64,000 nt of DNA from Parcubacteria bacterium RAAC4_OD1_1. Its GTDB lineage: Bacteria > Patescibacteriota > Minisyncoccia > Phycocordibacterales > UBA9973. This document shows, piece by piece, positions 808 to 61,560 of the stretch. Within the stretch, counting starts at the first letter, position 1. The number at the start of each line of letters is the position of its first letter. The notes beneath the pieces were generated by a model, which worked only from the letters and a program-made list of their open reading frames with translations, made no database searches and was not told the DNA's origin. The position numbers and the translations under genes are program-made. The stretch is taken from NCBI GenBank assembly GCA_000505065.1, contig AWSN01000001.1, positions 132,247-196,246 of the forward strand, in the 5' to 3' direction.

Positions 808-3171
808 ATGGAATCAAAAAAATTAAAATTCTTTAATAATCTTTCTTTTGGAATATTATTGTTTACAATATTTGCATCTTTTATCTTTTTTATGCCGTAT
901 TTGCCTGTTACACTAGAGGCAAGTAAAGGCTTTCTTGTTTCAATAGGGGCAACTTTATCTATCTTCTTTTGGTTTGTAGTTAGACTAGGTGAAGGTAAAT
1001 TTGTTATTCCTAAAGATAGGCTTATTATTTTAGGAGCAGTTATTCCATTTATATTTCTAATTTCTTCTTTCTTTTCTTCTTCTTTATATGTATCTTTGTT
1101 TGGTAATGGTTTTGAAGTTGGAACATTTGGTTCAATGTTGATTCTATATATAATCTTTTTTTTATCAGCAGTCCATTTCCAAACAGAAAATAAATTAAAA
1201 ACATTTTTTAAGTTTCTAATGATTACAGCTTTTGTTATAACAATCTTTCAATTAATTAATTTTACTATTGGGTTCGGAAGATTTTTACCAGGCTTGTTAC
1301 AAGGTGTATCATCTGGAAATCTTTTAGGTAGCTGGAATGATTTTGCTTTAATGTTTGGTTTATTTGTATTACTTTCAATTTTTTCTATTGATTTATTAAA
1401 ATCTAAATTAATATATCGTATAATTCAATATTTTGTTTTAGTTTTAGGTATTTTATTTTTAATTATAATAAATATGCCTTTAGTTTGGCTTTTGGTTGGT
1501 CTTTTTGGTGTCATACTTTTTGTATATAACATTTCAGCTGGGCATTCTCATTCTTCTTCAGAGCAAGAATCTAATGAAAAACCTCACGCGAATGGTTTTC
1601 CGGTGGCCTCTCTTGTTTTAGTTATTATTTCTTTTATTTTTATTATTGGTAGCAATTCTATTGGTAATCTTATATCAAATTACATAAGTCTTTCTAGTCC
1701 AGATGTAAGACCTTCTTTTATAACAACATCACAGATTGCATATAAAGCAATAAAGCATAATCCATTTTTGGGTACAGGTCCTAATACTTTTGTTATCGAT
1801 TGGACAATGTGGAAACCTGCTCAAATATCCAATACCTTATTTTGGGATATTGATTTTAACAGTGGTTTTAGTATGTTTACAACATTATTTGCTACTGTTG
1901 GAGTCTTGGGAGCACTTTCTATTTTAGCTTTTCTTTTTGTATTTATTATTAGAATAATTCAATCTTTAAAAATTGCATTTAAGGATGGTGTTCTCAATTA
2001 TTTTATAATGACAACTCTTATGGTTTCATTATATTCATGGATTATTTTTATAATTTATAATCCAAATATTTTGATGCTCATACTTGCTTTTTCTTCAAGT
2101 GGTATTTTAATAGGAATACTTATATATAAAAGGGTAATTCCTACAAATGAAGCATCATTTTTGAATGACCCAAGAAATAGCTTCTTCTCAATTCTTTTCT
2201 TGGTTGTACTTATGATGTCATCTATCTCTCTAACTTATGTTTATGTAGAAAAATTTGTTTCTCTTATATATTATTCTAAAGGTGTTGTAGCAAATGTTAA
2301 TGATATAGATTCTCTTTCTAAATCTGAAGTAATGATCTCAAACGCAATAACTTTAGATAAAAATGATAGTTACTATAGGTCATTATCACAAGTTTATGTA
2401 AATGAGATATCTTTGGTGGCAAATAACAAAAATTTATCAGAAGATACCTTGAAATCTTCTTTACAACAGCTAGTAAATCTTTCTCAAGAGTCAGCTACTT
2501 TAGCTGTTAGTAGGAATCCAAAAAATTATTTAAATTATATAAATTTAGGAGATGTATATACTTCACTTGTTGTTTTTGGTGTTGAAAATAGTTACGAAAA
2601 TGCATTGTCTTCATACAATAAAGCCTTAGAACTTGCCCCAAATAACCCAAGTATAATTCTTTCTATGGCTAATCTTGAATTTATAAATAAAAATAATGAT
2701 AAGGCAAAAGAATATATTAAAAATGCTTTAACTTTAAAATCAAATTATATAGATGCTATATTTTTGATGGCTCAAATCGAAACAGCAGAAGGAAATTTGG
2801 GTGAGGCTATTAAACAAGCTGAATATGCTTCTCAGATTAACCCAAATGATTCTACTATATTCTTTAGATTAGGTTTACTTAGATATAATAATTCTGATTA
2901 TTCAGGAGCTGTTAGTGCTTTTGAAAGAGCTGTAATCTTGAATAATAATTATCTTAATGCTAGATATTTCCTTGGTTTATCTTATCAAAAAGTTGGACGA
3001 AAAAGTGATGCCCTAACTCAGTTTGAGATATTAAATAAATTAGTACCAGAAAATGAAGAAATTAAAAATGCTTTAAATTCTGTAAACAATAATACTATTA
3101 CAGAAACAGAAGAAAACGAAGATACTAATAAAAATACTGAAAATAAGCCCCCATTAAAAGAAAATCAATAA
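808..3171 (+). CDS. Polytopic membrane protein (O-antigen ligase/Wzy-like N-terminal ~440 aa) fused to C-terminal TPR repeats
   Basis: About 10 predicted TM helices then TPR-like repeats (YENALSSYNKALELAPNN, AKEYIKNALTLKSNY, AIKQAEYASQINPND, AVSAFERAVILNNNY). Confidence 0.5.
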   Translation: MESKKLKFFNNLSFGILLFTIFASFIFFMPYLPVTLEASKGFLVSIGATLSIFFWFVVRLGEGKFVIPKDRLIILGAVIPFIFLISSFFSSSLYVSLFGNGFEVGTFGSMLILYIIFFLSAVHFQTENKLKTFFKFLMITAFVITIFQLINFTIGFGRFLPGLLQGVSSGNLLGSWNDFALMFGLFVLLSIFSIDLLKSKLIYRIIQYFVLVLGILFLIIINMPLVWLLVGLFGVILFVYNISAGHSHSSSEQESNEKPHANGFPVASLVLVIISFIFIIGSNSIGNLISNYISLSSPDVRPSFITTSQIAYKAIKHNPFLGTGPNTFVIDWTMWKPAQISNTLFWDIDFNSGFSMFTTLFATVGVLGALSILAFLFVFIIRIIQSLKIAFKDGVLNYFIMTTLMVSLYSWIIFIIYNPNILMLILAFSSSGILIGILIYKRVIPTNEASFLNDPRNSFFSILFLVVLMMSSISLTYVYVEKFVSLIYYSKGVVANVNDIDSLSKSEVMISNAITLDKNDSYYRSLSQVYVNEISLVANNKNLSEDTLKSSLQQLVNLSQESATLAVSRNPKNYLNYINLGDVYTSLVVFGVENSYENALSSYNKALELAPNNPSIILSMANLEFINKNNDKAKEYIKNALTLKSNYIDAIFLMAQIETAEGNLGEAIKQAEYASQINPNDSTIFFRLGLLRYNNSDYSGAVSAFERAVILNNNYLNARYFLGLSYQKVGRKSDALTQFEILNKLVPENEEIKNALNSVNNNTITETEENEDTNKNTENKPPLKENQ

Positions 3172-7243: not shown

Positions 7244-7314
7244 GCGGGATTAGTTTAGTGGTATGATGCGTCCTTCCCAAGGATGAGACACGGGTTCGAT
7301 TCCCGTATCCCGCA
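7244..7314 (+). tRNA. tRNA-Gly (anticodon CCC)
   Basis: Hand-folded cloverleaf: acceptor gcgggat/atcccgc, anticodon stem cgtcc/ggatg, loop ttCCCaa, T-arm acggg-ttcgatt-cccgt; weak D-stem; no encoded CCA. Confidence 0.8.
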
Positions 7315-7735: not shown

Positions 7736-7996
7736 GCCCTCGTAGTTCAATGGACCCCATCATAATGCTTCTGTAGTTCAATGGATAGAACAGTCCCGTC
7801 CTAAGGGATAGATGTCAGTTCGATTCTGGCCAGAAGCACAAATAAGCATTATGAGGGGCATGTGCCATAGTTCCGTCCTGAGGTGAGAAATGGGTAGGGA
7901 CCCATTTCGCAAGACCTTGAGCGTTTTGTAATCAAAATGCGAAAGGTATACCGCTTTTGTAAGAAGTAGATGCACGTTCGATTCGTACCGAGGGCA
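7736..7996 (+). ncRNA. Composite tRNA-like locus: outer 5' acceptor/D-arm (7736-7754) and T-arm/3' acceptor (7972-7996) enclosing a helix-clamped tRNA-Arg and about 113 nt of hairpin-rich RNA
   Basis: gccctcg (7736-7742) is the perfect complement of cgagggc (7989-7995); T-arm gcacg-ttcgatt-cgtac precedes the latter; see findings. Confidence 0.4.
7767..7838 (+). tRNA. tRNA-Arg (anticodon CCT), canonical 72 nt
   Basis: Acceptor gcttctg/cagaagc, D-arm gttc-aatggata-gaac, anticodon stem gtccc/gggat, loop gtCCTaa, T-arm gtcag-ttcgatt-ctggc, discriminator A. Confidence 0.8.
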
Positions 7997-8032
7997 CTTT
8001 TATTTTTAACCTATTTATGCTATAATATACTT

Positions 8033-8320
8033 ATGGATCAAGAGATTAAGAATCTTTTAGAAGAAAATTTGAGATTATCTAAAGAGAATAATGAATTACT
8101 TATAAAGGTAAGAAATTTTCAACGTTGGTCCCAAATAAGTAAAGCTTTATATTGGCTTGTAATAATAGGTGTAGCTTTGGGTGCATTTTATTTTATAAAG
8201 CCGTATTTTGATAATGTTTTAAATATTTATACAGGTGGAGTTTCTGATATAAATATGATAAAAGATTTAGGTGGAAAGGTTGATATAAATTCTATAAATG
8301 AATTATTAAAACAGTATTAA
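8033..8320 (+). CDS. Small coiled-coil/TM protein; start moved from 7970 to internal ATG 8033 (upstream part overlaps tRNA-like T-arm)
   Basis: TATAAT at 8021-8026 lies 7 nt before ATG (possible leaderless mRNA); one central TM helix. Confidence 0.4.
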   Translation: MDQEIKNLLEENLRLSKENNELLIKVRNFQRWSQISKALYWLVIIGVALGAFYFIKPYFDNVLNIYTGGVSDINMIKDLGGKVDINSINELLKQY

Positions 8321-8332
8321 TAGTTTACATAT

Positions 8333-8405
8333 GCCGAGATAGCTCAGTTGGTAGAGCGCTCCCCTGAAGAGGGATAGGTCCCCAGTTCGAGCCTGGGTCT
8401 CGGCA
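8333..8405 (+). tRNA. tRNA-Phe (anticodon GAA)
   Basis: Acceptor gccgaga/tctcggc, D-arm gctc-agttggta-gagc, anticodon loop ctGAAga, T-arm cccag-ttcgagc-ctggg. Confidence 0.85.
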
Positions 8406-8502
8406 CACAACATATGAACTACTTCATATGTGTCCAGGCGAGAAAGATTTTTCGTTATTTAATGTAATCATTAAATCGAAAAATACCTGGCTATGTAATA
8501 GC

Positions 8503-8522
8503 CGAGCCTGGGTCTCGGCACA
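8503..8522 (+). repeat. Exact 20 nt direct repeat of the tRNA-Phe 3' end (cgagcctgggtctcggcaca; first copy 8388-8407)
   Basis: Identical string 115 nt downstream; second copy preceded by gccgag, forming an acceptor/T-arm-like minihelix. Confidence 0.6.
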
Positions 8523-8527
8523 AAACA

Positions 8528-8556
8528 AAAAAATACCCTAACGGGTATTTTTTTTG
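8528..8556. terminator. Rho-independent terminator (taccc-taac-gggta + T9), probably bidirectional (also ends hsp20 on minus strand)
   Basis: Stem-loop 8534-8547 flanked by A-run and T-run. Confidence 0.6.
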
Positions 8557-9087
8557 TTATATTGATTTAATTTTTAATTTTGTTTCTCGGTGTTTATCTA
8601 TTTTTGGAAGTCTTATAATTAAAAGACCATGTTTTTCTATAGCCTCTGCTTCTTCTGGGTTTATTTCTTCTGGTAAAGATATTGTTCTTGAAAATGATCC
8701 CCAATATAATTCTTGCACAAAATAATCATCTTTATTAACAGATTGATTTTCTTCTCTTTTCCCTTTGATTGTTATTAAATCACGAGTGATTATAATGTTT
8801 AGATTGTCAGGTTGTACTCCAGCTACCATGGTTTGGACTATAATATCAGATGGAGTTTGATATAAATCAATAGTAAGTTCTGCTTCCACTTCTTCTTCCC
8901 ATCTAGATTCTTTTTCTATTTCTATTTTTTCTTCATTTTCTTCATTATTAATTTTTAACCTACGATTGTCTTTTTCTTCTAAAAAATCCCCTTCGTTTTC
9001 CTCGAAACGAATTCCACCTGTAAGGCGTTCCAAAAATGATTTCTTTTTAAACATATATTTATTGTATAGAAGGTGATAACCTTCCAA
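8557..9087 (-). CDS. Small heat-shock protein, Hsp20/alpha-crystallin family
   Basis: Alpha-crystallin domain (DLYQTPSDIIVQTMVAGVQPDNLNIIITRDLITIKGKRE...SFSRTISLP...LLIIRLPK). Confidence 0.75.
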   Translation of the reverse strand: MEGYHLLYNKYMFKKKSFLERLTGGIRFEENEGDFLEEKDNRRLKINNEENEEKIEIEKESRWEEEVEAELTIDLYQTPSDIIVQTMVAGVQPDNLNIIITRDLITIKGKREENQSVNKDDYFVQELYWGSFSRTISLPEEINPEEAEAIEKHGLLIIRLPKIDKHRETKLKIKSI

Positions 9088-35449: not shown

Positions 35450-35521
35450 TGACCTCACGGAGAATCGAACTCCGATTAGCGGATTGAGAACCCGCTGTCC
35501 TAACCGTTAGACGATGAGGCC
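35450..35521 (-). tRNA. tRNA-Glu (anticodon CTC)
   Basis: Reverse complement folds as acceptor ggcctca/tgaggtc, D-arm gtct-aacggtta-ggac, anticodon loop ttCTCaa, T-arm cggag-ttcgatt-ctccg. Confidence 0.8.
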
Positions 35522-61488: not shown

Positions 61489-61560
61489 GCGTGTGTAGTT
61501 CAGTGGTAGAACGCTGTCCTGATAAGACAGAGGTCCTTGGTCCGATTCCAAGCACACGCA
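61489..61560 (+). tRNA. tRNA-Ile (anticodon GAT)
   Basis: Acceptor gcgtgtg/cacacgc, D-arm gttc-agtggta-gaac, anticodon stem ctgtc/gacag loop ctGATaa, T-arm cttgg-tccgatt-ccaag. Confidence 0.85.

Follow-up and report, generated by a model that had tools for sequence, protein, structure and literature searches.

Small, structured, protein-less insertions in tRNA genes of Parcubacteria, and their probable decayed member behind the tRNA-Phe gene of Parcubacteria bacterium RAAC4_OD1_1

What kind of DNA separates a tRNA gene from a second copy of its own 3' end when the two are only 95 nucleotides (nt) apart? The question is raised by the tRNA-Phe(GAA) gene of Parcubacteria bacterium RAAC4_OD1_1 (Ca. 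Nomurabacteria; Rifle aquifer; closed genome of 693,530 bp), which was analyzed within a stretch of 64,000 nt (contig AWSN01000001.1, positions 132,247 to 196,246, forward strand; hereafter the window). The intact gene is followed by a 95-nt spacer and an exact 20-nt copy of its 3' end, and the spacer plus one copy make up a 115-nt unit. A tRNA with a duplicated 3' fragment around inserted DNA is a well-known general phenomenon, and integrative elements typically leave partial tRNA copies behind (PMC9897764). A preliminary description of the locus had offered three options, namely the scar of an island, a miniature non-autonomous element, or a tRNA-linked RNA. The second of these, in a now decayed state, comes closest to our results: the unit is very probably a decayed member of a group of very small, protein-less, RNA-structured insertions into tRNA genes of Parcubacteria. 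As to how such elements find their targets, we tentatively favor intron-like targeting guided by base pairing and rank it over attachment-site (att) recombination of the integrase type.

The window contains two exact copies of the 20-mer CGAGCCTGGGTCTCGGCACA and no more (positions in Table 1), and the similarity extends to 24 of 25 nt. The exact repeat reported in the preliminary description was thereby confirmed, and none of 100 shuffled sequences contained a match with two mismatches allowed. Origin by chance, or by a tandem duplication through replication slippage, can be practically dismissed. Slippage can generate short direct repeats, and L090, a related locus, does contain a simple tandem array of 64 nt, but an exact 20-nt repeat is not expected by chance, slippage would have duplicated the spacer too, yet the spacer is unique in the window, and homologous elements are present in other genomes. 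No further copy of the spacer was found in the window or in the first set of loci. Since the A-rich trailer and the terminator typical of the clade continue on the 3' side of copy 2, this copy appears to be the original 3' end of the tRNA, displaced from its gene; the terminator that follows it resembles those found natively after tRNA-Phe in L113, L089, L106, L108, L142, L076, and L144.

Relatives of the tRNA-Phe site were examined by scanning the tRNA 3' end against one genome per species and inspecting the matches; no locus with two copies of the 18-mer 3' end was found among these species-representative genomes, of which the source genome is evidently not one. A gene encoding a protein of 95 amino acids (aa) then served as synteny marker (alignment A1) with which 80 metagenomic loci were fetched, and the complete set comprised 95 loci with 225 tRNAs. 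Loci L001-L003, obtained by exact-protein look-up, represent the window's own population and are identical through the region. The single-copy, empty sites for which the preliminary description had proposed a search were indeed present. The 73-nt tRNA-Phe of L053 and L029, identical to that of the window at 73 of 73 positions, runs directly into a terminator and then the reverse-strand Hsp20 gene, and the gene order is that of the window (tRNA-Gly, glutaredoxin, tRNA-Arg, 95-aa membrane protein, tRNA-Phe, reverse-strand Hsp20). Further empty sites were found in L017, L033, L043, and L007. A structured trailer fixed in all relatives, which the same description had named as speaking against an insertion, is thus not what the relatives display. 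In addition, window positions 7950-8390, which hold the 95-aa gene and tRNA-Phe positions 1-58, are matched at 100% identity by L161, a 511-nt contig of a sister sample that was likewise obtained by exact-protein look-up. This contig has C instead of G at position 59 and past GGCACA is unrelated to the window, so that the divergence of a co-occurring strain begins exactly in the T-loop. The downstream sequence of this contig contains a different hairpin and stops 55 nt past the tRNA.

Two orthologous tRNA-Phe sites, L113 and L105, are occupied. L113 has the identical tRNA-Phe (73 of 73 positions) and the same terminator and Hsp20 flank; it has kept a hairpin, hpA, and a segment antisense to the acceptor, antiAcc (tgtgccgag), and its copy 2 is reduced to CGAGC. 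The window element, by comparison, has retained copy 2 and lost hpA and antiAcc, the acceptor guide, and differs from L113 by three compensatory pair changes in a second hairpin, hpB. L105 contains a 225-nt version with the same junction, the 20-nt repeat at the same position, and the same 3' end, ACCTGGCTATGTAGTAGC. The hpA of this version is ~90% identical to the window's native terminator, so that "copy 1 plus hpA" amounts to a tRNA-Phe 3' end with its usual terminator. Judged from these alignments, the spacer is an insertion, present or absent among close relatives and strains, and one ancestral insertion type is seen to have decayed differently by lineage, which speaks against a need of the host for the entire unit.

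The spacer turned out to be more than the preliminary description had proposed, namely part of a covarying, structured family with segments antisense to the tRNA. About 45 duplications of tRNA ends were counted in the 95 loci. They follow two patterns: either the 3' end of the tRNA is repeated exactly over 13-31 nt at a distance of 60-250 nt downstream, or its 5' end is repeated exactly 40-130 nt upstream. The genes that recurrently carry the element are those for tRNA-Gly, tRNA-Arg, and tRNA-Phe. The element is ~58-250 nt in size, encodes no protein, is inserted between T55 and C56 of the T-loop, and is always oriented as the tRNA. Its parts occur in the order copy 1, the terminator-like hpA, antiAcc, hpB (loop CTNC), guide, a stem S1 enclosing a variable hairpin, (GT)AC, a hairpin S2 (loop YTGTAA), and copy 2; antiAcc is the complement of the acceptor 3' strand plus trailer, and the guide is the complement of the T-loop and the 3' strand of the T-stem. 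A complete element thus contains a replacement tRNA 3' end and terminator (copy 1 and hpA), and the tRNA gene therefore stays whole. The same core was found at different tRNAs in different genomes, as evidenced by the conserved 3' end ACCTGGCTATGTArTAGC (18-mer) in L105 and L113 at tRNA-Phe and in L126, L085, and L114 at tRNA-Gly. Copy 2 is degenerate in about one third of the elements and still equals copy 1 in many diverged ones, and the L114 member is reduced to S1-S2. Such a family of ~60-250-nt, protein-less, covarying, guide-bearing tRNA insertions is apparently undescribed, being absent from Rfam 15 and from the literature searched.

A conserved fold was assessed with two alignments. 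A4 is a plain MAFFT alignment of seven elements of the window type, from which a covariance model, R1, was built (hpB, guide, S1, and S2); A5 consists of the 16 best matches of R1. In A4, 92.5% of the cells were paired and 17 of 31 pairs had changed on both sides, with slid controls at 36-46%. The corresponding values for A5 were 92.9%, 27 of 30 pairs, and 39-46%, the pairing figures being somewhat optimistic here because A5 was fitted to the R1 structure. None of 500 shuffles scored as high in either case. Helix 1 (hpB) was 97-100% paired in the two alignments, with two-sided changes in 6-8 of nine pairs. For helices 2 and 3 (S1 and its inner hairpin), two-sided changes in A5 affected the single pair of helix 2 and 14 of the 15 pairs of helix 3, and four of the five pairs of the S2 stem covary, the loop (Y)TGTAA being kept in the aligned rows. 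A search of R1 against the syntenic loci (520 kb) gave 28 matches at E<=1, one of them in the window and some from "type i" members of divergent sequence. Of the 16 best matches, 13 overlap a same-strand tRNA or lie downstream of one by <=154 nt, and the other three start at contig ends. An intact tRNA precedes the element at every tRNA-adjacent match checked, as it does in the window. Non-seed members scored 31-73 bits; the 100.4 bits of window positions 8406-8510 are partly given by construction, as the window is a seed sequence.

Within the window itself, the 120-nt trailer has a minimum free energy (MFE) of -37.3 kcal/mol (z = -6.3) and folds into three hairpins and one long-range helix; z-scores across the folds computed at the locus ranged from -6.3 to -7.6. 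Most structures in the preliminary description were recovered (Table 1). The long imperfect hairpin between the copies is real, with 8446-8454 facing 8477-8486 around its inner hairpin, and a terminator follows copy 2. The 9-bp palindrome, here hpB, is present one base away from the coordinates first given. The proposal that copy 2 and the preceding bases form a T-arm/acceptor minihelix (gccgag...ctcggc) fared worse: the helix can be drawn, but the MFE structure pairs positions 8506-8512 of copy 2 with the guide core at 8433-8439, and the minihelix is not kept in relatives, since copy 2 is missing from L113 and such a helix is impossible in the Gly-type elements that share the 3' end. The Phe minihelix is a by-product of a T-loop that reads CGAG, and the GC pair before copy 2 is assigned to S2. 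S2 adjoins the 3' junction and shares its last C with the start of copy 2. When the trailer is folded by itself, copy 2 is sequestered by the guide; when all 228 nt are folded, the 5' strand of the acceptor can mispair with copy 2.

Table 1. Features of the tRNA-Phe locus, in window coordinates
Feature	Positions	Strand	Remarks
tRNA-Phe(GAA), intact	8333-8405 (8405/6 by caller)	+	ARAGORN; Rfam tRNA 65.9 bits; CCA not encoded; tRNA positions 56-73 lie in copy 1
Direct repeat, copy 1	8388-8407	+	T-loop C56 to discriminator plus CA (2 nt beyond discriminator)
Direct repeat, copy 2	8503-8522	+	Exact match to copy 1
Hairpin hpB	8410-8431 (stem 8410-8418/8423-8431)	+	ACATATGAA-CTAC-TTCATATGT; homologous to hpB of other family members, loop CTNC
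Antisense "guide" remnant	8432-8445	+	GTCCAGGCGAGAAA; complementary to T-loop and T-stem 3' strand of tRNA-Phe
Stem S1	8446-8486	+	8446-8454 with 8477-8484 and 8486; A8485 bulged
Inner hairpin enclosed by S1	8457-8464/8469-8476	+	
Hairpin S2	8489-8503 (stem 8489-8493/8499-8503)	+	GGCTA-TGTAA-TAGCC
Bidirectional intrinsic terminator	8527-8554	both	12-bp stem and T-run on both strands; serves tRNA-Phe (+) and Hsp20 (-)
Hsp20 gene	8557-9054	-	Pfam HSP20

Strong structure and covariation would also be expected of an RNA that benefits its host. In that case RNase P, RNase Z, and the CCA-adding enzyme would convert the trailer (guide, hpB, S1, S2, and copy 2) into a stable RNA resembling a tRNA, whose acceptor/T helix would mimic tRNA-Phe in a regulatory or decoy role. 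The z-scores of -6.3 to -7.6 are in keeping with this, as are the identity of the two copies in many diverged elements and the layout of complete members, in which antiAcc, hpB, and guide together with copy 2 form a coaxial helix resembling acceptor and T-arm, with hpB where the D- and anticodon arms would emerge. Against it stand the patchy presence among close relatives, the independent loss of parts (antiAcc and hpA in the window, copy 2 in L113, all but S1-S2 in L114), the degenerate copy 2 in about a third of elements, and the lack of conservation of the Phe minihelix. A host-serving small RNA is accordingly considered improbable.

The segments antisense to the tRNA bear on targeting. Of 205 tRNAs, 17 are followed by an antisense match of >=11 nt to their own 3' region, compared with 3 of 1025 mismatched controls. 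A direct repeat of >=12 nt was present at 22 tRNAs, 15 of which also had an antisense match of >=9 nt. Across the Gly, Arg, and Phe elements, the guide between hpB and S1 varies with the T-arm of the upstream tRNA; examples of guide and T-arm are GGGAGGGAATCGAA with TTCGATTCCCTCC, GCAGGAATCGAA with TTCGATTCCTGC, and CCAGGAGGCGAA with TTCGACTCCTGG, and the pair of the window is CCAGGCGAGAA with TTCGAGCCTGG. Duplex energies were best or near-best with the own tRNA for the elements tested. The guide of the window reached -16.0 kcal/mol with its own tRNA, against a cross-element mean of -11.9 kcal/mol, and none of 11 others did better. By manual tally, eight of nine transition differences from perfect guide complementarity keep a G-U pair on the sense strand, a bias that suggests selection on RNA pairing. 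Guide coverage extends to T54-T55 (or T54-58), bases not included in copy 2, so the guide fits an uninterrupted tRNA across the insertion point, a point that antiAcc and guide together span. The guide of the window is degraded, with tandem mismatches, and its antiAcc is lost.

Taken as a whole, the pattern inclines us, with some hesitation, to an intron-like, base-pair-guided insertion element behind the family. The antisense segments would be an RNA guide that recognizes T-arm and acceptor by base pairing, as the exon-binding sequences of introns do, and the element, instead of being a prophage stump, would behave as a selfish RNA element akin to an intron. Because it would bring its own "3' exon" and terminator, the host could make the tRNA without splicing. 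In the window, where hpA is gone, transcription of tRNA-Phe would read through the remnant to the terminator at 8527-8554; the tRNA would be released by normal 3' processing after A8405 and CCA addition, and the trailer removed. The window copy is most likely an inert passenger now. None of the five tRNA genes of the window (7244-7314, 7767-7838, 8333-8405, 35450-35521, and 61489-61560) encodes CCA, and CA(C/A) follows the Gly, Arg, and Phe genes, the three that were read at sequence level; 3' maturation must therefore use endonucleolytic trimming and CCA addition.

Intron-like targeting would explain the target-matched guide, the covarying fold that ends at the 3' junction, the co-orientation with the gene, and the location of sites in the T- and anticodon loops. 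The persistent identity of the two copies in diverged elements would also be accounted for, as both would be usable 3' ends. The closest known counterparts are group I introns, which occur in bacterial tRNA anticodon loops and in the T-loop of transfer-messenger RNA (tmRNA) (bioRxiv 10.1101/2020.01.27.920355). The elements share with introns such as Arg.5Ug and that of the tmRNA T-loop the co-oriented insertion into these loops, the existence of variants with and without an open reading frame (ORF), and a guide-like internal segment that may pair, in the manner of P1/P10, with the sequence on either side of the insertion point. U before copy 1 and G before copy 2, a combination that fits an intron-like mode, were found in seven of seven cases of a subtype among the relatives (in L087, L089, L125, the Arg element of L126, L083, and L091). 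Moreover, the neighboring pseudo-tRNA-Arg is interrupted exactly after CCT.

The ORF-bearing variant, which likewise fits an intron-like element, was found in L086. The tRNA-Arg element at L086 1264-2298 and that at L087 1795-1946 are the same, with and without an 883-nt insert in a hairpin loop; at 1035 nt the L086 element is the largest insertion, and its insert encodes a 236-aa protein. The protein has no Pfam domain, and its predicted model (pLDDT 84) gave no PDB fold match at E<0.1. It belongs to a family restricted to Patescibacteria whose homologs elsewhere are in ordinary gene contexts; as these homologs are not bound to elements, the protein was not adopted as a mobility enzyme. A homolog is encoded in L155, 500 nt upstream of an element of the larger subtype. 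This subtype (~170-180 nt; L125 1854-2029, L126 2606-2810 and 4382-4556, L114 3806-3978, L130 935-1102, and L155 3140-3385) has the core GGTGCCCAGA-[hairpin]-TCGAGGGAGAT, and its Arg members end in ...ATGG or ...GTGG before copy 2 and have U before copy 1, reminiscent of the -1U/omega-G of group I introns. Rfam Intron_gpI gave no match in the larger-subtype loci L114, L125, L126, and L130.

Several observations weigh against an intron-like element. In the window, T8387 precedes copy 1 but C8502 precedes copy 2, so that omega-G is missing from this type. Rfam scans of the window and 11 relatives, at the gathering threshold and at E<=10, returned only tRNAs and noise, with no group I or II intron, self-cleaving ribozyme, tmRNA, or T-box; there was no Intron_gpI match at any threshold. 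ARAGORN runs on the window with introns allowed or thresholds lowered added nothing credible. The elements are too small for a group I core and, to our knowledge, smaller than any known self-splicing intron. Unlike a gene with an intron, the tRNA here is uninterrupted, as the element opens with a copy of the 3' exon and a terminator: copy 1 was present in every T-loop member seen and no tRNA was truly interrupted, which a recombination or duplication mechanism predicts and an intron does not. Tandem arrays (L085 1-160, L126 2034-2100, L130 1103-1250, and also L090) are likewise reminiscent of att sites, each unit in L085, L126, and L130 terminating in a further copy of the tRNA 3' end. The segments from T-loop to 3' end and from anticodon loop to 3' end are reportedly, after Williams in 2002, the classical sublocations of tyrosine integrases. 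The constant copy 1, the arrays, the tiny size, and the absent model match are thus left unexplained by an intron-like origin, and the optimistic pairing figures of A5 noted above belong on the same side.

These points lead directly to classical att duplication, in which a tyrosine-integrase element (a prophage, an integrative and conjugative element, or a cis-mobilizable mini-element) would have integrated at the T-loop of tRNA-Phe and brought a tRNA 3' end and terminator with it. An internal deletion, or an origin as a non-autonomous satellite, would then have left ~100-250 bp between attL and attR, the structured core being cargo or the arm region. The resemblance is considerable: a complete tRNA and a partial 3' copy enclose foreign DNA, the pattern that integrative elements typically leave (PMC9897764); the repeat begins within the T-loop, and empty sites exist. 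A terminator hairpin directly follows copy 1 in the complete members L113, L105, L087, and L126, as expected if the element supplies the tRNA end and its terminator; accretion is in tandem, copy 1 is always present, and the strain breakpoint of L161, the one observation that bears on excision to a circular form, falls at the T-loop. In L090, L098, and L099, degenerate copies of tRNA-Phe from the anticodon arm to the 3' end resemble ordinary att scars.

The att-like signature of the preliminary description was thus upheld as regards the duplication around inserted DNA and the empty sites, but not as regards the integrase-bearing island that it expected in related genomes. No such island was found in the ~95 syntenic loci, and none longer than 1.1 kb lies between repeats within ~+/-4 kb of each of the 95. 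No integrase or recombinase was found among the window neighbor genes (LepA, DivIC, Grx, Hsp20, PrsW, and LeuRS) or in or beside any element examined, and Pfam searches of eight ORFs in enlarged gaps between tRNA and marker (8 loci) revealed no recombinase domain. Viral contigs scanned with the element 3' end, the type-i core, the L161 tail, and the tRNA-Phe 3' end gave two chance matches in coding regions and no contig with element ends or the tRNA-Phe 3' end. A double-stranded circle of 115-260 bp is an implausible recombination substrate. Tyrosine-integrase att sites differ from elements of 58-250 nt with a covarying, RNA-like fold and inverted target copies, that is, an antisense guide varying with the target tRNA; the target-tracking guide, its wobble-tolerant pairing, and the strong covariation are left unexplained by att duplication, and a plain prophage scar does not account for the tRNA-antisense segments. 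Att duplication is considered somewhat less probable than base-pair-guided, intron-like insertion.

Recombination without any dedicated element was also considered. The tRNA would serve as a homology anchor for DNA of related strains, the second crossover would be illegitimate, and duplicated tRNA ends, foreign terminators, and mosaic pseudo-tRNAs would be the outcome. L161, which equals the window up to tRNA position 58 and is unrelated after the tRNA, could be such a product, as could the L105 hpA that is ~90% identical to the window's native terminator. Copy 2 in L085 and L092 derives from a tRNA-Arg allele other than that of copy 1, and tRNA pieces of older and newer origin are combined at the neighboring tRNA-Arg locus. 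Unrelated events of this kind would not, however, explain one ordered, covarying architecture, the same 18-nt 3' end at Gly and Phe genes of different genomes, or target-matched antisense segments, nor that the type-ii 3' junction is already largely identical regardless of donor. We consider this origin unlikely.

Two further systems invite comparison. Elements of the CTX-phi type are integrated by Xer recombinases through an attachment sequence in direct-inverted-direct arrangement, of which the single strand can fold into a duplex that mimics the target; they use the host XerCD at dif, are kilobases long, and contain genes. The direct-inverted-direct arrangement, and the capacity for such a duplex, would be shared by the elements described here, which differ in their three tRNA gene targets, tiny size, and RNA-like wobble pattern. 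Miniature inverted-repeat transposable elements (MITEs) and the Rickettsia palindromic elements that occur within or next to tRNA and tmRNA genes are similarly small, non-coding, hairpin-rich, multi-copy, and tolerated in RNA genes; the present elements, in contrast, have neither terminal inverted repeats nor a short target-site duplication of fixed length, their repeats of 13-31 nt always reach the gene end, and they are strictly co-oriented with, and matched in sequence to, the target tRNA. An identity as transposon or MITE was rejected for want of terminal inverted repeats, because of the repeat lengths of 13-31 nt, and because all 13 R1 matches with a tRNA in the locus are on the strand of that tRNA. 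A likeness to retroviral primer-binding sites was set aside since the antisense segment matches the gene-encoded trailer and not CCA. Other likenesses, to the hammerhead core, loop B of the hairpin ribozyme (common UACCUGG), IS200/IS605 or repetitive extragenic palindromic (REP) elements (GTAC plus hairpin), and archaeal bulge-helix-bulge introns, were dropped as unsupported.

Other oddities were noted at tRNA genes of the same loci. Window positions 7736-7997 (+) hold a broken, older tRNA-Arg(CCT) with a 5' piece at 7736-7754 and a 3' piece at 7960-7996; its 3' flank, CTTTTATTTTTAA, is orthologous to that of the clean tRNA-Arg of L029 and L053. There are two interruptions. The first, in the D-loop, is a complete, different tRNA-Arg(CCT) at 7767-7839 inside a 15-bp inverted repeat (7756-7770/7844-7858), and the second, after the anticodon CCT, is an 80-nt structured insert at 7879-7959 that contains the family motif GACCTTGAGC...GCGAAAGGTATAC and a TGTAA hairpin. 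The nested architecture recurs in L105 and, as a variant, in L034. Upstream of tRNA-Phe, a 5' mirror image of the duplication was seen in which an exact copy of positions -5 to +12 lies ~50-130 nt before the gene (L029 1279-1350 (-), L034 893-975, L082, L083, L097, L124, L134, L137, and L147). A degenerate D-arm-like hairpin (GTTTTGGTGGAAAAAGCACCAA) follows this 5' copy, and the fragment always fits the local tRNA though acceptor stems vary by lineage. In L086 568-1200 (+) and L087 ~1100-1722 (+), a 210-aa ORF with an N-terminal helix-turn-helix and a LAGLIDADG-like LLIGIYWGEGTK ends inside the 5' end of tRNA-Arg, and on these features it may encode a free-standing homing endonuclease beside a tRNA hotspot. 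Lastly, the degenerate tRNA-Phe copies at L090 4385-4560, L098 4400-4490, and in L099 begin at the anticodon arm and directly follow the intact gene, those of L090 forming three tandem 64-nt units; being without a structured element, they are a second, simpler kind of scar at the same gene.

In its broadest form, and more doubtfully, the family could be a novel class of mobile elements of Patescibacteria, very small, RNA-guided, and intron-like, whose members home to the T-loop (and anticodon loop). A ~20-30-nt antisense guide would span the site, and the cost to the host would be neutralized by the duplicate "3' exon" and terminator, an extension that we likewise regard as speculative. Its members may derive from group I introns by miniaturization, or may be a novel ribozyme or RNA-guided recombination system. 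For the window alone the message is modest: tRNA-Phe is intact and its trailer is most likely a decaying passenger. If the wider reading is true, the tRNA genes of bacteria with minimal genomes have been colonized by a protein-less element that finds its target through base pairing and spares the host gene through a duplicate of the displaced end, a strategy between those of introns and integrative elements. It would then account for many of the "ghost" tRNA fragments and pseudo-tRNAs in metagenome assemblies of the Candidate Phyla Radiation (CPR), would caution annotators over partial tRNA calls, and would offer a testable system for programmable, RNA-directed insertion into tRNA genes.

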